Shown piece by piece: positions 20,200-28,115 of a DNA stretch of 64,000 nucleotides (position 1 is its first letter; every line of letters begins with the position of its first letter). Where the stretch lies: assembly GCF_024700885.2 (NCBI RefSeq), contig NZ_CP117016.1. The stretch is one strand, 5' to 3'. This DNA comes from Escherichia coli. GTDB lineage: Bacteria > Pseudomonadota > Gammaproteobacteria > Enterobacterales > Enterobacteriaceae. Both the position numbers and the translations under genes were made by a program. Under the pieces are notes generated by a model. It was not told the DNA's origin. It made no database searches and saw nothing but the letters and a program-made list of their open reading frames with translations.

Positions 20200-21432
20200 A
20201 TGTCGTCATTTGATTACCTGAAAACTGCCATCAAGCAACAAGGCTGCACGCTACAGCAGGTAGCTGATGCCAGCGGTATGACCAAAGGGTATTTAAGCCA
20301 GTTACTGAATGCCAAAATTAAAAGCCCCAGCGCGCAAAAGCTGGAGGCGTTGCACCGTTTTTTGGGGCTTGAGTTTCCCCGGCAGAAGAAAACCATTGGT
20401 GTCGTATTCGGTAAGTTCTACCCGCTGCATACCGGACATATCTACCTTATCCAGCGCGCCTGTAGCCAGGTTGACGAGCTGCATATCATTATGGGCTTTG
20501 ACGATACCCGTGACCGTGCGTTGTTTGAAGACAGCGCCATGTCGCAGCAGCCCACGGTGCCGGATCGTCTGCGCTGGTTATTGCAAACCTTTAAATATCA
20601 GAAAAATATCCGTATTCATGCCTTCAACGAAGAGGGCATGGAGCCGTATCCGCACGGCTGGGATGTGTGGAGCAACGGCATCAAAAAGTTTATGGCTGAA
20701 AAGGGGATCCAGCCGGACCTGATCTACACCTCGGAAGAAGCCGATGCGCCACAGTATATGGAACATCTGGGGATCGAGACGGTGCTGGTCGATCCGAAAC
20801 GCACCTTTATGAGTATCAGCGGTGCGCAGATCCGCGAAAACCCGTTCCGCTACTGGGAATATATTCCCACCGAAGTGAAGCCGTTCTTTGTGCGTACCGT
20901 GGCGATCCTTGGCGGCGAGTCGAGCGGTAAATCAACCCTGGTAAACAAACTTGCTAATATCTTCAACACTACCAGTGCATGGGAATATGGTCGCGATTAT
21001 GTCTTTTCACACCTTGGCGGTGATGAGATCGCATTGCAGTATTCCGACTACGATAAAATCGCGCTGGGACACGCTCAATACATTGATTTTGCAGTGAAAT
21101 ATGCCAATAAAGTGGCGTTTATCGACACTGATTTTGTCACTACCCAGGCGTTCTGCAAAAAGTACGAAGGGCGGGAGCATCCGTTCGTGCAGGCGCTGAT
21201 TGATGAATACCGTTTTGATCTGGTGATCCTGCTGGAGAACAACACCCCGTGGGTGGCGGATGGTTTACGCAGCCTCGGCAGTTCGGTGGATCGCAAAGAG
21301 TTCCAGAACTTGCTGGTGGAGATGCTGGAAGAGAACAATATCGAATTTGTGCGGGTTGAAGAGGACGATTACGACAGCCGTTTCCTGCGCTGTGTGGAGC
21401 TGGTGCGGGAGATGATGGGCGAGCAGAGATAA
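20200..21432 (+). CDS. nadR: Bifunctional NMN adenylyltransferase / ribosylnicotinamide kinase / repressor
   Basis: 410-aa product MSSFDYLKTAIKQQGCTLQQVADASGMTKGYLSQLL... Confidence 0.9.
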   Translation: MSSFDYLKTAIKQQGCTLQQVADASGMTKGYLSQLLNAKIKSPSAQKLEALHRFLGLEFPRQKKTIGVVFGKFYPLHTGHIYLIQRACSQVDELHIIMGFDDTRDRALFEDSAMSQQPTVPDRLRWLLQTFKYQKNIRIHAFNEEGMEPYPHGWDVWSNGIKKFMAEKGIQPDLIYTSEEADAPQYMEHLGIETVLVDPKRTFMSISGAQIRENPFRYWEYIPTEVKPFFVRTVAILGGESSGKSTLVNKLANIFNTTSAWEYGRDYVFSHLGGDEIALQYSDYDKIALGHAQYIDFAVKYANKVAFIDTDFVTTQAFCKKYEGREHPFVQALIDEYRFDLVILLENNTPWVADGLRSLGSSVDRKEFQNLLVEMLEENNIEFVRVEEDDYDSRFLRCVELVREMMGEQR

Positions 21433-21465
21433 CCGTGACGAAACGGCTCAAAGGCGAGGTATAAA

Positions 21466-21669
21466 ATGAGTTTTTTTGATAAGTTGAAAACCTCTCTGGA
21501 AGAGGCTGTTGAGATTAAACAAGGTTTAAAAGAACCTGCACGGGTGACCCGCTACGAAATTGCGGATGCTAAGGCTATTCGTGAGCAACTTCATACTCCA
21601 ACTGACCGGTTGCGTAGCCAGAATGCAATCAAATCTGACAGTCCGCTTCGAGCGAAAATCGGAAGTTAG
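21466..21669 (+). CDS. Hypothetical small protein (67 aa)
   Basis: ORF with plausible RBS directly downstream of nadR; no recognisable motif; first gene of the nadR-ettA accessory segment. Confidence 0.3.
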   Translation: MSFFDKLKTSLEEAVEIKQGLKEPARVTRYEIADAKAIREQLHTPTDRLRSQNAIKSDSPLRAKIGS

Positions 21670-21672
21670 TAG

Positions 21673-22221
21673 CTAGTTACCCAATAACTGCTCCCACTCT
21701 TTCTTGAGTAGAGCGAAAATAAATGTATCATCATATTTTTCTACACCATTATCATGTGTGAACGAGACAAACTCTTTAAAACATCCCTCCTGTCGCATAT
21801 GGAGACGAGCACATAGTTTCTGAGAGGCAAAATTATAGTCTTCAACATATGCATAAAGACGTCTGGCTTCTTTTTCAAAAAACAAATATTGAAATAACGC
21901 AGTGACAGATTCTGTAGCATAGCCTTTACCTTCATACCTCTTGTTAAAATGCCAGCCAACTGACCAGGTATTTCTGTCAGACTCCCCCTTATTATCAGCA
22001 AAGAGATGACCAATTAATTCATCAGTCTCTTTAAGGCAAACGGCAAACTGGCTGTTATCAAGGATTCTGCTGTCTATTTCTTTTATCGCATCTTCCAGGG
22101 AGTTGAGTTTTTCGTCCTGAAAACAAGGTGTGCGAGGTGAAGACAGATAATCGAAAAGTGCAGATGCATCTTTATTTTTGAATGCGCGAATAATGAGTCG
22201 CTCTGTAGTCATGAAGATCAT
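21673..22221 (-). CDS. GNAT-family N-acetyltransferase (RimJ/RimL-like)
   Basis: 182-aa ORF with GNAT core (WSVGWHFNKRYEGKGYATESV); true start may be the Met at 22212; AT-rich. Confidence 0.65.
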   Translation of the reverse strand: MIFMTTERLIIRAFKNKDASALFDYLSSPRTPCFQDEKLNSLEDAIKEIDSRILDNSQFAVCLKETDELIGHLFADNKGESDRNTWSVGWHFNKRYEGKGYATESVTALFQYLFFEKEARRLYAYVEDYNFASQKLCARLHMRQEGCFKEFVSFTHDNGVEKYDDTFIFALLKKEWEQLLGN

Positions 22222-22362
22222 GGAAACCTTATGTTATCTGGAGAACTTTTTGTGCATTCTACTAAATAATGATGCTTAGTCATATTAAGCTCATTCTGAT
22301 GTGATCAATGTCTACTTTTGGCACTATACGGACGACCAAACCCAATCAGATCCGACCAGCCG

Positions 22363-22584
22363 TTAGCCAGTGCCAGTTCGGCGCGCGCTTTGGTGTATTT
22401 TCCGGAGTAAATCAGCGTGCCGTGGAAAATTATGCGCAGCGCTTCTGCTGATTTGCGTACCTTCGCAGATGATAAGTCCAGCACTGGCGCGCTGCGCGTA
22501 ATAGGCCGCCATTATGTCAGTCGCAACGTCACCCGCGCGGGAACGCGTCGTCGGTGGCATTACAATACGGTTTATTAATGGCAA
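22363..22584 (-). pseudogene. Truncated remnant of an Old-Yellow-Enzyme-type NADH:flavin oxidoreductase (NemA-like) gene
   Basis: 73-aa ORF whose first ~50 residues (NRIVMPPTTRSRAG...MAAYYAQRASAGLIICEGTQIS) match the OYE N-terminus, then diverge; no downstream continuation. Confidence 0.5.
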
Positions 22585-22632
22585 CGCATTCAGCGCATAT
22601 TTAGCAAATTACGTAATGGGTCCCTCGCGCGA

Positions 22633-22845
22633 TTATTTATACAGTTCGGCACTCATGGTGACGGTATTGCCCATGCGAGCGCTGGTAATTTTGTATTCAG
22701 AGGCGTTCATCTCTTTCGCTTTCTGCGCAATAACCGCTTCAGCGGAATCCAGTGTTGTACCGGTTGCTGTCACGCTTTGCGCCGATGCGTTAAACGCCGC
22801 GACAGAGAAAAGAGAAGCCGTAAAAATTGCGATGATCGTTTTCAT
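22633..22845 (-). CDS. DUF1471 (YdgH/BhsA/McbA-family) small secreted protein
   Basis: 70-aa product MKTIIAIFTASLFSVAAFNASA (signal peptide) ...YKITSARMGNTVTMSAELYK. Confidence 0.65.
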   Translation of the reverse strand: MKTIIAIFTASLFSVAAFNASAQSVTATGTTLDSAEAVIAQKAKEMNASEYKITSARMGNTVTMSAELYK

Positions 22846-23002
22846 GTTTATATTCCAGAGTGTCTTAATTGTTTGGCGTTTATTAACGCGATGGGGAGAG
22901 AATACGCCTGCTGCCTGATAACATAAATGATACAAATGACAATAGACTATTCTGATTTTGTTAATAATCAGACGCCGGACGTTCCGACGCCTGTCGATTG
23001 CA

Positions 23003-23419
23003 TCAGGCAACAAAGTTGTCCTTCAGCGCCTTGAGACCATCCCGATAGATGCCGGTAAACAGCGCTTCGGCCTCTTCGTTCGTCACATTCACCGGGGTGA
23101 ATTCACCGAACCATTCCACACGGGAAACCTGGCTGTCGGCGGTTTCATGAACGGTAATGGTGGAGAGGTAATCCACCACCGGGAACGGTGCCTGAATAAT
23201 GGAATAGGTATAACTGCGTTGACGGTTATCAAACGCTTCCAGACGTTCAACCACAGTGCCGCCGTCAGAGGTTGTCAGCGAACGAACGCGACCGCCTTCT
23301 GTCACTACGCTTTTCGGGATGAACGGCAGCCAGTCTGGCAGCGCATCAAAGCCGCCCATCAATTGCCATACGGCGTCGGTAGAAGCCGGAATTTCGATCG
23401 ATACAGTTGTTTTAGCCAT
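23003..23419 (-). CDS. SRPBCC-superfamily (polyketide-cyclase/START-like) protein
   Basis: 138-aa ORF MAKTTVSIEIPASTDAVWQLMGGFDALPDWLP..., family pattern of small ligand-binding SRPBCC proteins. Confidence 0.55.
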   Translation of the reverse strand: MAKTTVSIEIPASTDAVWQLMGGFDALPDWLPFIPKSVVTEGGRVRSLTTSDGGTVVERLEAFDNRQRSYTYSIIQAPFPVVDYLSTITVHETADSQVSRVEWFGEFTPVNVTNEEAEALFTGIYRDGLKALKDNFVA

Positions 23420-23444
23420 GATAATTTTCTCTTAATTTATAGGG

Positions 23445-24242
23445 TTACATAGTCAGGGTGTCGACGACACCGCCATCGACGCGCAGGGCTGCCCCTGTGG
23501 TTGCCGAGGAAAGCGGTGACGCGAGATAAACCGCCAGATTCGCTACTTCTTCCACATCCGCCGCACGCTGGATGATGGAGCTCGGACGCGAGGTTTTAAC
23601 AAACTCATCGGCCTGTTCACGCGCACTGCGTCCCGATTGTGCAGCGGCATCCGCCAGCATCTCTTTCAGGCCATCGGTAAAGGTTGGCCCTGGCAGAATG
23701 GCGTTGACGGTCACACCGGTCCCCGCCAGTCGTTTCGCCAGACCATGAGAAACCGCCAGATTCGCGGCTTTGGTGACGCCGTAGTTGATCATGTCGCCAG
23801 GGATTGCCACGCCGGATTCGGACGAGACAAAAATAATCCGCCCCCAGCCCTGTTCCGTCATGCCTGGCGCATAGTGACGCGCCAGACGAACGCCGGAGAG
23901 GACGTTGACGTTATAGAAGTGCATCCACTCATCATCCGGAACGCTAAAGAAATCTTTATCGTTAAAAATGCCCAGATTATTGACCAGCACATCAGCCGTT
24001 GGGACTGCAGCGATCAGCGCAGCCACGCCGTCTTCGGTGCTGAGATCCGCCACCACGCCGCGCAGTGACGCTGTGGGGGTTTGTGCCGCAATCGCAGCCA
24101 TGGCGTCATCAACGCCGCTCTGTTTACGGCCGACGACAACCACCGTTGCGCCTGCTTTTGCCAGTCCGGCGGCGATACCCTGCCCAATGCCGGAGGTTGA
24201 GCCGCTGACCACCGCGACTTTACCTGTCAGATCCAGTTTCAT
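23445..24242 (-). CDS. Short-chain dehydrogenase/reductase (SDR)
   Basis: Start MKLDLTGKVAVVSGSTSGIGQGIA (TGxxxGxG Rossmann motif); ORF-track start is further upstream. Confidence 0.8.
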   Translation of the reverse strand: MKLDLTGKVAVVSGSTSGIGQGIAAGLAKAGATVVVVGRKQSGVDDAMAAIAAQTPTASLRGVVADLSTEDGVAALIAAVPTADVLVNNLGIFNDKDFFSVPDDEWMHFYNVNVLSGVRLARHYAPGMTEQGWGRIIFVSSESGVAIPGDMINYGVTKAANLAVSHGLAKRLAGTGVTVNAILPGPTFTDGLKEMLADAAAQSGRSAREQADEFVKTSRPSSIIQRAADVEEVANLAVYLASPLSSATTGAALRVDGGVVDTLTM

Positions 24243-24261
24243 CGTTTTCTCACCAGGTTGA

Positions 24262-25272
24262 TTAACGGGTCGGCAGCGGAGCGTTTTCCGCAACCAGATT
24301 TTGACGGCGCATTTCTGCCCAGAATTCAGCCGGAACAGGCGCATTCAGTGCAGCCAGATCTTCTGCCATACGGCCAGGACGGCTGGAGCCAGGAATAACC
24401 GCTGCAACGGCCGGGTTTGCCAGCGCGAACTGCAGCGCAGCCGCTTTAACGTTCACATTGAAACGTGTGGCAATGGCGTTAATTTGCGCCACTTTCTGCT
24501 GGATGGCCGCAGAAGCTTTCTGATATTCAAAGTGCTCGCCGCCTGCCAGTACGCCAGAGCTGTACGGACCGCCCACAACAATATCCACGTTCTGTTCCAG
24601 TGCTTCTGGCATCAGGCGTTGCAGCGCACGTTCGTGATCCAGCAGGGAATAACGCCCCGCCAGCAGGAACGCATCTGGCTTCGGTTCGTCCAGCGCCAGC
24701 GTCAGTTCACAAGGTTCGACGCGGTTCACACCCAGTCCCCAGGCTTTAATCACACCTTCGTCACGCAAACGTGTCAGTGCACGAAACGCACCGGTACGGG
24801 CTATGTTGAACTGTTCCAGCCAGCTGTCACCGTAGAAGTCCTGTGCCGGGTCGTGGATCCAGACAATATCCAGACGGTCTGTTTTCAGGCGTTTCAGGCT
24901 GTCTTCAATCGAGCGCAGCGTGGCGTCAGCAGAGTAGTCATTCAGAATTTTGTTTTTCAGGCCGTATTCGAACAGGCCACCTTTTTCACCGAAATCACGT
25001 TTTGCCGGATCTTCCATTTCGTCCAGCATGATGCGACCGACTTTGCTGCTCAGAACGTATTCATCACGTGGATACTGAGACAGCGCTTCGCCTATGCGGA
25101 TTTCAGAAAGGCCAGAGCCGTACAGCGGCGCGGTATCAAAGTAACGCACGCCCAGGTTCCAGGCTTCGCTCACGGTGGCGTGGGCCTCGTCTTCCAGAAT
25201 GGCACGGAACATGTTGCCGAGTGGTGCGCCGCCTAAGCCAATTTTGCCGGGAAGTAAATTTTTGATGCTCAT
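24262..25272 (-). CDS. Aldo-keto reductase
   Basis: 336-aa ORF with AKR signatures (IGLGGAPLG, RYFDTAPLYG, IVWIHDP). Confidence 0.8.
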   Translation of the reverse strand: MSIKNLLPGKIGLGGAPLGNMFRAILEDEAHATVSEAWNLGVRYFDTAPLYGSGLSEIRIGEALSQYPRDEYVLSSKVGRIMLDEMEDPAKRDFGEKGGLFEYGLKNKILNDYSADATLRSIEDSLKRLKTDRLDIVWIHDPAQDFYGDSWLEQFNIARTGAFRALTRLRDEGVIKAWGLGVNRVEPCELTLALDEPKPDAFLLAGRYSLLDHERALQRLMPEALEQNVDIVVGGPYSSGVLAGGEHFEYQKASAAIQQKVAQINAIATRFNVNVKAAALQFALANPAVAAVIPGSSRPGRMAEDLAALNAPVPAEFWAEMRRQNLVAENAPLPTR

Positions 25273-25405
25273 AAGATGTCCTCAATTATTCGGTTTGGGT
25301 TAGGGCATTTTTTTGCTATCGCCCTGTGACGTGGATCACAATACCTTGCGAGGTTGTGACTTGATAGGACATAATTCGTCTGACTTAAGTCCTTTGAGGT
25401 CTAAC

Positions 25406-26293
25406 ATGATTGATTTACGCCAACTGAAGTACTTCGTGGTGGTCGCAGAAGAAGAGCACGTGGGACGCGCAGCCGAGCGATTACATATCTCGCAATCACC
25501 GCTGAGCCGCCAGATTGCACAACTGGAAGAACGGCTGGGGCTGACGCTGTTTGAGCGTAATCAGCAGCGCATTCGCCTGACCGCTGATGGACAGACATTC
25601 CTTGCCGAAACACGTTCGTTGCTGACACACGCCAACCGCCTGGAGTCGTTAGGCAAACGCCTGGGACGGGGGGAAGATGGTGGCTTGTGTATTGGCTATA
25701 TCGAAAACGCCATGCATTCCGGTGTGCTTTCTACGGCGCTACGTACGTTACGTGTATCGCGTCCGAATGTGCATATTGCACTTTACAGCCAACCACCGGC
25801 GACCCAGATTGAAGGCCTGCGCCAGCGCAGTCTCGATTTTTCTCTGGTCGATACGCCGCCCACCGACAGCGAGCAGGATCTGGAATATATTCAGGTTCTG
25901 GATGATCGAATGTTGTTGGCCTTACCGCAAAATCATCCTCTGGCGCAGGAGGAAAACCTTGTCGCGTCACAACTTGGCGATGAGCAGTGGATTGCGGTGA
26001 TTCATAACGACGATGCGCATTCTCGCGATCATTTTGTCGCCGCCTGTGTTAACGCCGGGTTTAATCCTGATATTCGCCTGGAAGCGGGTGAACCCCTCAC
26101 GGCATTAGGTCTGGTCGCTGCGGGATTAGGTCTGGCCTTAATTCAACATAGTCTGCGTCATAATGCGCCGGAAGGGGTGGTATTACGTGAATTGCCGTGG
26201 ATGAATTATTCAACGCAATTATGGGCAGCCTGGCATAAAGCCAACCAACGTCCGCTGGTTTCCCATTTCCGCCAGATTTTGCGCGGTGAATAA
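25406..26293 (+). CDS. LysR-family transcriptional regulator
   Basis: Start MIDLRQLKYFVVVAEEEHVGRAAERLHISQSPLSRQIAQLEERLG (LysR HTH); divergent from the aldo-keto reductase gene. Confidence 0.85.
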   Translation: MIDLRQLKYFVVVAEEEHVGRAAERLHISQSPLSRQIAQLEERLGLTLFERNQQRIRLTADGQTFLAETRSLLTHANRLESLGKRLGRGEDGGLCIGYIENAMHSGVLSTALRTLRVSRPNVHIALYSQPPATQIEGLRQRSLDFSLVDTPPTDSEQDLEYIQVLDDRMLLALPQNHPLAQEENLVASQLGDEQWIAVIHNDDAHSRDHFVAACVNAGFNPDIRLEAGEPLTALGLVAAGLGLALIQHSLRHNAPEGVVLRELPWMNYSTQLWAAWHKANQRPLVSHFRQILRGE

Positions 26294-26399
26294 AACGTTA
26301 AGCGGGAACCATGAGTTCCCGCTTGATTTGAGATGTCAGTCCGCATCTGAGCTAATACGCTTAAAGAAAATTCTGCCTTTTCCGGGGACTCATCATTTA

Positions 26400-26445
26400 A
26401 CTAATACCGGCTGCGATGCTGGCGCGCCGCATCCGGCATTTTACG
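26400..26445. repeat. REP-like element
   Basis: gcgcgccgcatccggcat motif downstream of the ettA 3-prime end. Confidence 0.35.
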
Positions 26446-26447
26446 CA

Positions 26448-28115
26448 TTACTTCGCAATGCGCTTGTACTTGATACGCTTCGGCTCCAGCGCGTCTGCGC
26501 CCAGCGTGCGTTTCTTGTACTCTTCGTACTCGGTAAAGTTACCTTCGAAGAACTCAACTTTACCTTCATCCTGGTAGTCCAGGATGTGCGTGGCGATACG
26601 GTCGAGGAACCAACGGTCGTGCGAGATAACCATCGCGCAGCCCGGGAACTCCAGCAGGGCGTTTTCCAGCGCACGCAGGGTTTCGATATCCAGGTCGTTG
26701 GTTGGTTCGTCGAGCAGCAGCATGTTGCCGCCAACTTGCAGCAGCTTCGCCAGATGCAGACGACCGCGCTCACCGCCGGAGAGTTCACCAACGCGTTTAC
26801 CCTGATCAACCCCTTTAAAGTTAAAGCGGCCAACGTAGGCGCGGCTTGGCATCTCGGTGTTGCCGATTTTCATGATATCCAGCCCGCCGGAAACTTCTTC
26901 CCAAACGGTTTTGCTGTTATCCATTGAGTCACGGAACTGATCAACCGATGCCAGTTTCACCGTTTCACCCAAAGTGATGGTGCCGCTGTCCGGCTGTTCC
27001 TGACCAGAGATCATACGGAACAGCGTCGATTTACCCGCACCGTTCGGACCGATGATCCCGACGATCGCCCCTTTCGGGATCGAGAAACTCAGATCATCAA
27101 TCAGCAGACGATCGCCATAGGATTTACGCAGATTGCTGACTTCCAGCACTTTGTCGCCCAGACGCGGTCCAGGTGGAATAAACAGTTCGTTGGTTTCGTT
27201 ACGTTTCTGATATTCGGTGCTGTTCAGCTCTTCAAAGCGTGCCAGACGTGCTTTACCTTTCGACTGACGGCCTTTAGTTCCCTGACGTACCCACTCCAGC
27301 TCTTTCTCAATCGACTTACGACGCGCCGCTTCTTGTGAAGCTTCCTGCGCCAGGCGCTGATCTTTCTGCTCCAGCCAGGAGGAGTAGTTGCCTTCCCACG
27401 GAATACCTTCACCGCGGTCCAGTTCGAGGATCCAGCCTGCAACGTTATCGAGGAAGTAACGGTCGTGAGTAATCGCTACAACGGTGCCTTCGAAGTCGTG
27501 CAGGAAGCGTTCCAGCCACGCCACGGATTCGGCATCCAGGTGGTTCGTCGGTTCGTCGAGCAGCAGCATGTCTGGTTTTTCCAGCAGCAGGCGGCACAAC
27601 GCCACGCGACGACGCTCACCACCGGAGAGGTTAGCGATTTTCGCGTCCCAGTCCGGCAGACGCAGCGCATCCGCCGCACGCTCCAGCTGAACGTTCAGGT
27701 TGTGACCGTCGTGAGCCTGAATGATCTCTTCCAGACGGCCCTGTTCAGCGGCCAGTTTGTCAAAATCGGCATCCGGATCGGCGTACAGCGCATACACTTC
27801 ATCCAGACGTTTCAGAGCGTTAACCACTTCAGAAACCGCTTCTTCAATGGACTCACGTACGGTGTGTTCCGGGTTGAGCTGAGGTTCCTGCGGCAGATAA
27901 CCAATCTTGATATCCGGTTGCGGACGCGCTTCGCCTTCGATGTCTTTATCAATGCCCGCCATAATGCGCAGCAGGGTGGACTTACCCGCGCCGTTCAGAC
28001 CCAGGACACCAATTTTTGCCCCAGGGAAGAAACTCAGAGAGATGTTTTTCAAAATATGACGTTTCGGCGGAACAACTTTGCCGACACGATGCATGGTATA
28101 AACGAATTGAGCCAC
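26448..28115 (-). CDS. ettA: Energy-dependent translational throttle protein EttA (ABC-F)
   Basis: 555-aa product MAQFVYTMHRVGKVVPPKRHILKNISLSFFPGAKIGVLGLNGAGKST; two ABC cassettes. Confidence 0.9.
   Translation of the reverse strand: MAQFVYTMHRVGKVVPPKRHILKNISLSFFPGAKIGVLGLNGAGKSTLLRIMAGIDKDIEGEARPQPDIKIGYLPQEPQLNPEHTVRESIEEAVSEVVNALKRLDEVYALYADPDADFDKLAAEQGRLEEIIQAHDGHNLNVQLERAADALRLPDWDAKIANLSGGERRRVALCRLLLEKPDMLLLDEPTNHLDAESVAWLERFLHDFEGTVVAITHDRYFLDNVAGWILELDRGEGIPWEGNYSSWLEQKDQRLAQEASQEAARRKSIEKELEWVRQGTKGRQSKGKARLARFEELNSTEYQKRNETNELFIPPGPRLGDKVLEVSNLRKSYGDRLLIDDLSFSIPKGAIVGIIGPNGAGKSTLFRMISGQEQPDSGTITLGETVKLASVDQFRDSMDNSKTVWEEVSGGLDIMKIGNTEMPSRAYVGRFNFKGVDQGKRVGELSGGERGRLHLAKLLQVGGNMLLLDEPTNDLDIETLRALENALLEFPGCAMVISHDRWFLDRIATHILDYQDEGKVEFFEGNFTEYEEYKKRTLGADALEPKRIKYKRIAK

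Follow-up and report, generated by a model that had tools for sequence, protein, structure and literature searches.

Two kinds of described systems come closest to the locus studied here, a gene cassette under putative LysR control between nadR and ettA on an Escherichia coli chromosome. The cassette lies in the 64,000-nucleotide stretch of DNA that was analysed, which is called the window throughout. The first kind are divergent operons controlled by LysR-type transcriptional regulators (LTTRs), such as BenM and CatM of Acinetobacter, ItcR of Yersinia, and AlsR. The second kind are electrophile and quinone response units, such as nemR-nemA-gloA of E. coli and the YodB, CatR and HypR regulons of Bacillus, whose regulators are of the HxlR or MarR/DUF24 type. 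In the cassette, lysR was divergent from genes for an aldo-keto reductase (AKR), a short-chain dehydrogenase/reductase (SDR) and an SRPBCC protein. After these came a DUF1471 gene and an Old Yellow Enzyme (OYE) pseudogene of the NemA-like type.

Like the first kind, the cassette had a regulator of this domain architecture, a divergent operon and a short shared control region with interrupted dyads over the regulator's own predicted promoter. However, its LysR was not an orthologue of these regulators, and its targets were reductases, not a catabolic pathway. With the second kind, it shared a sensor of its own next to NAD(P)H reductases, a NemA-like OYE in the complete enteric form, HxlR-type regulators that replaced or accompanied LysR (Gottfriedia, Streptomyces nigra) and a small BhsA/RclB-like protein. 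In contrast to these units, the sensor of the cassette was LysR, not TetR-type NemR or HxlR. In addition, its core of AKR and SRPBCC was absent from those regulons, and its induction by electrophiles is putative. By analogy, the cassette would work like a standard LTTR-controlled divergent operon, and probably as an electrophile response of the nemRA/YodB type.

The best overall explanation was that the cassette is a selected accessory unit for LysR-controlled, inducible reduction of carbonyl or enone compounds, to which we assigned a probability of roughly 0.6. That the chemistry serves detoxification was given an even chance. RefSeq already lists the DNA, with generic names for its genes, in hundreds of genomes. 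The new results are the dissection of the segment (the split of nadS, the addition of a GNAT gene and the wreck of the OYE gene) and the recognition of LysR-AKR-(SDR)-SRPBCC as a conserved, mobile module, which by sequence comparison has an operator shared across phyla. The element is ordinary in kind, a LysR regulator with oxidoreductases at a variable chromosomal spot, with a core that is unusually well conserved.

Structure of the nadR-ettA segment

The gene order of the window was serB-radA-nadR-[segment]-ettA-slt on the E. coli chromosome. The gap between nadR and ettA was 5,015 bp (21433-26447), compared with 307 bp in K-12 MG1655. A preliminary description of this DNA had stated that the two genes are near-adjacent in K-12. 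This was confirmed, and none of the genes of the segment lay between them there. All genes that it had named were found again at the same coordinates by open reading frames (ORFs), Pfam and NCBIfam matches and RefSeq gene models, including lysR divergent from the minus-strand run of AKR, SDR, SRPBCC and DUF1471 genes. A RefSeq genome that was 100% identical over 21000-27000 had the same gene models as the window. The segment had also been described as strain-variable. Comparison across genomes agreed with this, since 482 of 5,426 complete E. coli genomes had AKR-SDR-SRPBCC DNA and K-12 was without it. However, the segment was not a single 5-kb island as had been proposed, because nadS sequence was present on both flanks, the GNAT gene was a separate module and the left end varied. 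Read from the sequence, the segment is a mosaic of a split nadS remnant, a low-GC GNAT module and a 4.0-kb cassette at 22318-26326. The functional unit is this cassette, not the whole 5-kb segment. The features of the cassette were as follows.

22318..22620, minus strand: pseudogene of a NemA-like Old Yellow Enzyme (ene-reductase), from alignment to intact genes
22633..22845, minus strand: small protein of the DUF1471 (YdgH/BhsA/McbA) family (Pfam, 1e-10)
23003..23419, minus strand: SRPBCC protein (Polyketide_cyc2), 138 aa (Pfam PF10604, 1e-29, residues 1-136)
23445..24242, minus strand: classical SDR oxidoreductase, 265 aa (Pfam adh_short_C2, 6e-44)
24262..25272, minus strand: AKR, 336 aa, first gene of the operon (Pfam Aldo_ket_red PF00248, 3e-44, residues 10-322)
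25338..25404: divergent control region, within the 133-bp spacer between lysR and the AKR gene
25406..26293, plus strand: LysR-type transcriptional regulator, 295 aa (HTH_1 PF00126, 3e-24; LysR_substrate PF03466, 9e-39)
26300..26324: hairpin with an 11-bp stem at the right end of the cassette, from a terminator-like scan

Cassette homology ended at 26326 in alignments with the Escherichia genome E69 and E. whittamii. The GC content was 0.55-0.60 over AKR-SDR and 0.39-0.44 over the GNAT gene. The segment was present at this site in some genomes and absent in others, and its GC content was atypical, as in a strain-variable accessory segment. No integrase, transposase, other mobility gene or tRNA was found among the ORFs and annotation of the segment, and flanking direct or inverted repeats were limited to matches of chance size. 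No Rfam family was found in 21300-26600 at E <= 0.1. An integrative genomic island or mobile element was considered and rejected, as none of its hallmarks was found in the segment. A search of plasmids gave no match to the cassette, and recent carriage on plasmids was thus not supported.

LysR and the divergent control region

The regulator carried an N-terminal HTH_1 domain and a C-terminal LysR_substrate domain within 295 residues, as in other LTTRs. It was 62-92% identical across phyla. Residues 1-100, which comprise the DNA-binding domain and the linker helix, were almost invariant in ten orthologues of four classes from E. coli to Streptomyces. The protein scored below the cut-off of every named NCBIfam model (AlsR was best with 223 against 430 bits; PRK09986 gave 207 against 290), and its nearest structures were ItcR (PDB 7W06; 1e-36, about 130 bits) and BenM/CatM (1e-29). 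It was therefore not placed in the AlsR, HcaR, GltC, BenM/CatM, OxyR or ItcR groups.

The control region was described from the spacers between lysR and the AKR gene in 72 loci. Among them were 67 different sequences, which came from alpha-, beta- and gamma-proteobacteria and actinobacteria. About 60 bp adjoining the lysR start codon were conserved from E. coli to Streptomyces in these sequences, whereas the rest of the spacer was not. The following elements were located.

25338-25343, minus strand: predicted -10 element of the AKR operon, TATTGT (conserved as TAnnnT)
25358-25370: conserved block GTCCTATCAAGTC
25368-25391: dyad GACTTAA-N10-TTATGTC (consensus GAC-N2-AA-N10-TT-N2-GTC), from a column-wise symmetry test and kept in the 67 sequences
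25370-25375, plus strand: predicted lysR -10 element, CATAAT, a promoter-like match inside the dyad at 25368-25391
25388-25402: dyad AGACC-N5-GGACT (consensus AGnCC-N5-GGnCT), from the same symmetry test

In the direction of the AKR gene, the consensus of the operator was CAT-gT.AGACCT-N5-GACTyAAGT-N4-C-N2-AtTAtGTCtTggac.GtC, followed about 15 nt on by cTAnnnT. The control region was identical in the three island variants of E. coli. The motif occurred once in the 64-kb window, at the lysR-AKR site, and no second operator copy was found. A divergent target operon and an interrupted dyad over the regulator's own predicted promoter are the layout of an LTTR, and the near-invariance of LysR residues 1-100 matched the frozen operator. 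This layout would correspond to the classical LTTR scheme, in which the regulator represses itself from a site over its promoter and activates a weak promoter facing the other way. LysR control of the AKR operon, which the preliminary description had proposed, was strongly suggested by the co-inheritance of the genes in 65 of 80 loci and by the conservation of both the operator and the DNA-binding domain across phyla. We hold this structural and regulatory description of the cassette with high confidence.

LysR contained two cysteines in total, C95 and C214, and both were invariant in ten orthologues of Proteobacteria and Actinobacteria. About half of all columns were invariant, and these cysteines were taken as a lead for thiol-based electrophile sensing, not as evidence.

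Co-inheritance of the cassette genes across bacteria

A scan was performed with the SRPBCC protein using one genome per species. It gave 80 loci, and the gene combinations were determined by tblastn with the window proteins.

LysR, AKR, SDR and SRPBCC: 42 of 80 loci
LysR, AKR and SRPBCC: 23 of 80 loci
AKR and SRPBCC without LysR: 4 of 80 loci, one also with SDR
SDR and SRPBCC without AKR: 8 of 80 loci, one also with LysR
SRPBCC alone: 3 of 80 loci

LysR, AKR and SRPBCC were together in 65 of the 80 loci, and SRPBCC adjoined AKR and/or SDR in 77. These results showed that lysR, AKR and SRPBCC were inherited together. Enterobacterales and many Pseudomonas had the form with four genes. The form with three genes, in which SDR is missing, occurred in Burkholderiales, Rhizobiales, some Pseudomonas, Streptomyces, Micromonospora and Saccharopolyspora. 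Separate look-ups gave the AKR-SRPBCC pair alone in Gottfriedia, Paenibacillaceae and Mucilaginibacter (Firmicutes and Bacteroidota) and in several metagenomic lineages. Between E. coli and Pseudomonas, Burkholderiales or Streptomyces, the identity was 72-77% for AKR, 54-68% for SRPBCC and 62-75% for LysR. Values of this size are unusual between bacteria so far apart.

The genes outside the cassette were genus-specific when the ORFs of 95 loci were clustered. The exceptions were OYE and, sporadically, a MoaF-like protein, a luciferase-like monooxygenase and an alpha/beta hydrolase. The MoaF-like protein of 107-110 aa was encoded directly downstream of SRPBCC in the unrelated genomes of Providencia (L025, 5830-6162) and Rhizobiales (L036, 5604-5927). 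In Providencia, it was followed by a luciferase-like monooxygenase and a membrane transporter. In Pseudomonas loci L038, L045, L058, L065, L069, L088 and L092, an SDR-SRPBCC pair (about 70% and about 62% identical, respectively, to the proteins of the island) was present without AKR, and one of these loci had a lysR gene of 60% identity in the same orientation. This pair may be a paralogous version of the module.

Enzymes and small proteins of the cassette

The AKR had the catalytic tetrad D46-Y51-K77-H140 of its superfamily, in register with L-galactose dehydrogenase. Its orthologues in Pseudomonas, Janthinobacterium, Streptomyces and Gottfriedia were 72-77% identical. The SDR had the motifs of a classical SDR, GSTSGIG, NNLG, SSES and S...YGVTK, and the basic GRK after strand 2 suggests NADP(H) as the cofactor. 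Its matches in the PDB were 8G9M, an SDR of Acinetobacter baumannii (9e-138), and 3T4X, an SDR of Bacillus anthracis (1e-70). The SRPBCC protein matched 3CNW ('XoxI', B. cereus) and 3F08, both at about 1e-52, and corresponded to the helix-grip fold of about 140 aa. It was 54-83% identical across five phyla. The 45 invariant positions included D29, W30, S37, E41, R44, R46, E58, R59, Y70, Y72, Y84, W103 and Y125. These four structures were close homologues of the SRPBCC and SDR proteins and probably belong to the same families; they have no assigned role.

The DUF1471 protein gave weak matches to the BhsA, RclB and YhcN models, and its hydrophobic N-terminal stretch, read by eye, looks like a signal peptide. 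The gene followed SRPBCC in Klebsiella, Citrobacter, Yersinia, Raoultella, Yokenella and Providencia. In the window, the two genes were separated by 157 bp (22846-23002) with an imperfect GC-rich hairpin at about 22972-22998. Because of this gap and hairpin, DUF1471, formerly together with OYE, may be transcribed apart from AKR-SDR-SRPBCC. A search of 22846-23002, upstream of DUF1471, gave no second LysR operator.

The ratio of nonsynonymous to synonymous substitution rates (dN/dS) was 0.02-0.18 for LysR, AKR, SDR, SRPBCC and DUF1471 when they were compared with orthologues of other Escherichia, Citrobacter, Yokenella, Klebsiella and Yersinia; for DUF1471 it was 0.03-0.18. Against another E. 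coli carrier, the values were 0.00-0.12 for LysR, AKR, SDR and DUF1471, and the value was undefined for SRPBCC, which had no synonymous differences. All five intact genes are under purifying selection and are not chance ORFs.

The preliminary description had noticed a decayed oxidoreductase fragment. The fragment was present (ORF at 22363-22584, minus strand; Oxidored_FMN 2e-7, NemA model 4e-13), and it was now identified as part of the NemA-like OYE pseudogene. Intact OYE genes of 365-366 aa were located 12-18 nt after DUF1471 in Citrobacter amalonaticus, Yokenella and E69. The intact Yokenella protein scored 397 bits on the N-ethylmaleimide reductase (NemA) model, against a cut-off of 403. 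The window aligned to two separated parts of the intact gene, which indicated an internal deletion of 687 bp at 22446|22447. The start codon was lost (ACG TAA in the window, ATG CTT in Yokenella) and the 3' end was cut at 22318. The OYE of E. whittamii shared the 687-bp internal deletion.

Occurrence in E. coli and at other chromosomal sites

The 482 carriers corresponded to about 9% of the complete E. coli genomes, or about 1 in 11, and the DNA was always present as a single chromosomal copy. In 481 of them, the coding DNA of LysR, AKR, SDR, SRPBCC and DUF1471 was intact and 98-100% identical. In several other genomes, the nucleotide identity of the cassette was as follows.

E69 (L014), a divergent Escherichia genome labelled E. 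coli: 97.7%
E. whittamii (L015): 94%
Citrobacter amalonaticus (L095): 88.5%
Trabulsiella guamensis (L016): 88.5%
Yokenella (L017): 82%
Klebsiella pneumoniae (L093): 77%

In E69, the cassette adjoined pitA-yhiN. In K. pneumoniae, it was near crl-frsA-gpt. Among public assemblies, more than 2,400 index blocks contained the protein. The cassette is very widely recorded in genomes of this species. In Citrobacter, Enterobacter and Pseudomonas, it was found in yet other genomic contexts. No homology to nadR or ettA was found beside the cassette in any other locus examined outside E. coli. A common nadR-ettA position in other genera was considered and dropped for this reason.

The pitA-yhiN flank of E69 (CP089930.1, 1-10414) was just about 94% identical to E. 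coli. The cassette of this genome had an intact OYE gene, followed by 3.6 kb without a match in any complete E. coli genome. E69 is probably a cryptic Escherichia lineage, as judged from its sequence. A 2.1-kb contig (JAIJJM010000574.1) of a metagenome-assembled genome labelled Collinsella sp. was 99-100% identical to the SDR-SRPBCC-DUF1471 segment of E. coli. This is most likely a mis-binned Escherichia contig.

Function of the cassette

In the proposed mechanism, LysR would bind the conserved dyads over its own promoter and repress itself. When a small-molecule effector is bound, it would activate the weak AKR promoter with the conserved -10 element (TAnnnT). With NAD(P)H, AKR and SDR would reduce the carbonyl groups of a hydrophobic molecule that the SRPBCC protein would bind, present or isomerise. 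In the complete cassette, OYE would reduce the conjugated C=C bond, and the result would be an inducible unit for detoxification of an enone, quinone or aldehyde.

The best-supported role was that of an inducible system which uses NAD(P)H to reduce a carbonyl or enone compound of hydrophobic nature. This role appears likeliest because the cassette combines two carbonyl reductases with a hydrophobic-ligand fold and a NemA-like OYE, has OYE and HxlR genes as neighbours and encodes a DUF1471 protein with stress relatives. Seven of the loci, from five organisms in three phyla, had an intact NemA-like OYE gene beside the cassette. This gene adjoined the cassette, after DUF1471, in Citrobacter, Yokenella and E69, and was a pseudogene in this window. 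In Providencia, Gottfriedia and Mucilaginibacter, an OYE gene was within about 3.6 kb of AKR-SRPBCC. In Gottfriedia, an HxlR-type regulator and OYE were upstream of AKR-SRPBCC, and in Streptomyces nigra an HxlR-AKR pair adjoined the cassette. These neighbours are circumstantial support for the carbonyl and electrophile idea. The relatives of the DUF1471 protein, BhsA, RclB and YhcN, are stress proteins and were counted towards the electrophile link.

The SRPBCC gene was constant and paired with AKR or SDR, and often started a few bases from the AKR stop codon. This suggested that the protein probably works directly with the reductase. A stronger form of this idea is that AKR and SRPBCC are an obligate two-protein enzyme on one widespread small molecule. 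In this enzyme, SRPBCC would isomerise or deliver the compound and AKR would reduce it, and LysR would sense it, with a DNA-binding domain and an operator that changed very little as the module moved between Proteobacteria and Actinobacteria. We propose this form only tentatively, with the odds clearly against it. If true, it would make the cassette a so far unrecognised unit of sensor and enzyme that moves horizontally and has one conserved ligand, and also a ready-made biosensor. In the opium poppy, neopinone isomerase (PR10/Bet v 1 fold) works with codeinone reductase, an AKR, in morphine biosynthesis. There too, a small protein of SRPBCC fold is paired with an AKR, and a double bond is moved into conjugation before the ketone is reduced. 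This pairing is a precedent for a possible reason to keep AKR and SRPBCC genes together. However, it belongs to alkaloid synthesis in a plant, no relationship by sequence was shown, and the likeness would be an analogy of mechanism only.

Several points weighed against the proposed role in carbonyl or enone reduction. No substrate or inducer was found for any orthologue of the cassette proteins in the literature and the PDB searched. The literature on 'XoxI', on 8G9M, 3T4X, 3CNW and 3F08 and on the gene combination gave no functional study. The substrate of the A. baumannii SDR (8G9M) is stated as not known in its paper, and 3CNW, 3F08 and 3T4X are structures without an assigned role. LysR binding, promoters and transcription start sites were predictions only. 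Of about 100 loci, only 7 showed the association with OYE, and they came from five or six organisms. OYE was dead in E. coli and therefore dispensable. In addition, the closest characterised AKRs oxidise sugars, and the nearest LysR structures (ItcR, BenM and CatM) sense carboxylic acids, not electrophiles.

The last two points are shared by the best-surviving alternative, a unit for sugar or polyol oxidation, which we consider unlikely. In this alternative, the AKR would be an NAD(P)+-dependent aldose 1-dehydrogenase of the L-fucose, L-galactose or D-arabinose type, the SDR would act on a sugar-derived ketone or alcohol and LysR would sense the sugar acid or lactone product. The AKR has the same superfamily and tetrad as the plant L-galactose dehydrogenase (8SCC/7SMI) and the Pseudomonas L-fucose (D-threo-aldose) 1-dehydrogenase, and its best solved relatives were L-galactose dehydrogenases, with E values from 7e-30 for the plant enzymes to 1e-18. 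JGI and UniRef automatically name its orthologues D-threo-aldose 1-dehydrogenase. The relatives of the SDR include models of NADPH-sorbose reductase and glucose 1-dehydrogenase, and LysR was nearest to the carboxylate-sensing regulators ItcR, BenM, CatM and AlsR. However, the similarity to L-galactose dehydrogenase was distant (E of about 1e-30) and confined to two separate aligned stretches, and no NCBIfam model was reached. No conserved transporter, lactonase, dehydratase, kinase or aldolase was beside the cassette, and the neighbours differed in almost every genus. A hydrophobic-ligand SRPBCC partner and OYE/HxlR neighbours are also a poor fit to sugar catabolism. The distant similarity and the lack of sugar genes in the context did not favour assigning the AKR as a D-threo-aldose or L-galactose 1-dehydrogenase.

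It is very unlikely that the cassette is a decaying hitch-hiker without a present function in E. coli, which persists only because it is linked to a spot prone to recombination. In the window, three genes were degraded (OYE, nadS and the toxin gene upstream), the left end varied among strains (GNAT, TauE/SafE or deletion), and 91% of E. coli genomes were without the segment. However, the five genes were intact in 481 genomes at 98-100% identity. The dN/dS values given above, 0-0.12 within E. coli and 0.02-0.18 against other genera, and the identical control region of the three island variants also stood against decay.

The weakest alternative, and a highly improbable one, is production or tailoring of a secondary metabolite or signal by an SRPBCC cyclase/dehydratase, an SDR ketoreductase and a second reductase (AKR), as in aromatic polyketide pathways. 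In its favour were the Polyketide_cyc2 assignment of the 138-aa protein in Pfam, the matches of the SDR to KR and FabG-type models and the frequency of the cassette in Streptomyces and Pseudomonas. However, the ligand-binding fold of Polyketide_cyc2 is a broad one, and enteric bacteria without such pathways have the same three or four genes. In addition, no conserved biosynthetic gene, such as one for a polyketide synthase or an acyl carrier protein, was nearby in any of about 100 loci. The SRPBCC protein was accordingly not classified as an aromatic polyketide cyclase or dehydratase.

Solved structures exist for three close relatives, yet the cassette proteins have no assigned substrate. The identity of the inducer would give a function to a large and widespread gene set. 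It would also explain the upkeep of the cassette in about 9% of E. coli, including enterohaemorrhagic E. coli O145:H28, and would yield a portable regulator-operator pair for sensing the compound.

The nadS remnants and the GNAT module

The remaining features of the segment were as follows.

21466..21669, plus strand: nadS', 67 aa, consisting of nadS codons 1-43 and 24 foreign codons, with the helix-turn-helix (HTH) lost
21591..21667: short linker, from pairwise blastn against two other E. coli islands (L004 and L005)
21673..22221, minus strand: RimJ/RimL-like GNAT acetyltransferase (Pfam Acetyltransf_3, 1e-20)
26361..26400, plus strand: 3' remnant of nadS, from alignment with the full-length nadS of strain Trh52 (L003)

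The nadR-ettA spacer of E. coli was a degraded toxin-antitoxin site. Some strains, such as Trh52 (L003, 2193-2811), had an intact RelE/ParE toxin gene and the gene for the 94-aa antitoxin-like HTH protein NadS between nadR and ettA. In K-12, nadS (L002, 3082-3249) was a shortened form of 55 aa that ran into sequence like a repetitive extragenic palindrome, with no toxin gene. Expression of K-12 nadS has been reported in a transposon-reporter study (PMC12350097). The toxin gene was gone from the window and from K-12 except for its last ~30 bases, at 21436-21464 upstream of nadS in the window.

A 67-aa ORF had been listed in the preliminary description. It was present, but its identity was corrected, as it consists of foreign sequence joined to the 5' end of nadS. 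The NCBIfam NadS model matched residues 1-44 at 5e-21 over a model of 94 positions. When the ORF was aligned with the 94-aa NadS and the 55-aa NadS of K-12, residues 1-43 matched and were followed by unrelated sequence. Compared with Trh52, nadS DNA homology stopped at 21590 and restarted at 26361 with the last bases of nadS. This meant that the accessory DNA was 21591-26360 and had replaced the middle of nadS. The 67-aa ORF and 26361-26400 were thus the two ends of the nadS of the RelE/ParE-NadS pair of other E. coli. A functional type II toxin-antitoxin system (RelE/ParE-NadS) was considered for the window and rejected. The toxin gene was gone, and NadS had lost its HTH, with residues 1-43 and a 3' scrap left, so no functional pair was left.

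The linker was whole in the island of the PCN033 type (L005), and its first 60 bases (to 21650) were present in the deletion type (L004). Of 5,426 complete E. coli genomes, only 19 had the GNAT module (21668-22314), with 100% identity in every case, and most island carriers were without it. The closest GNAT protein outside E. coli was that of Morganella morganii, with 91% identity. By sequence comparison, the GNAT gene is rare, has no relation to the cassette and was added to it later. In carriers of the L004 type, 21651-22376 of the window was simply absent. All three other full-cassette carriers listed (H22-H24) covered just 86% of the island, which fits this deletion. At the exact position of the GNAT gene, PCN033 (L005, 2169-3670) had genes for a TauE/SafE-family membrane protein and for a 123-aa protein with a weak match to a LysR-type HTH. 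The alternation of GNAT, TauE/SafE with the small HTH protein, and deletion at one position indicated that the left end of the island was a small swap site.

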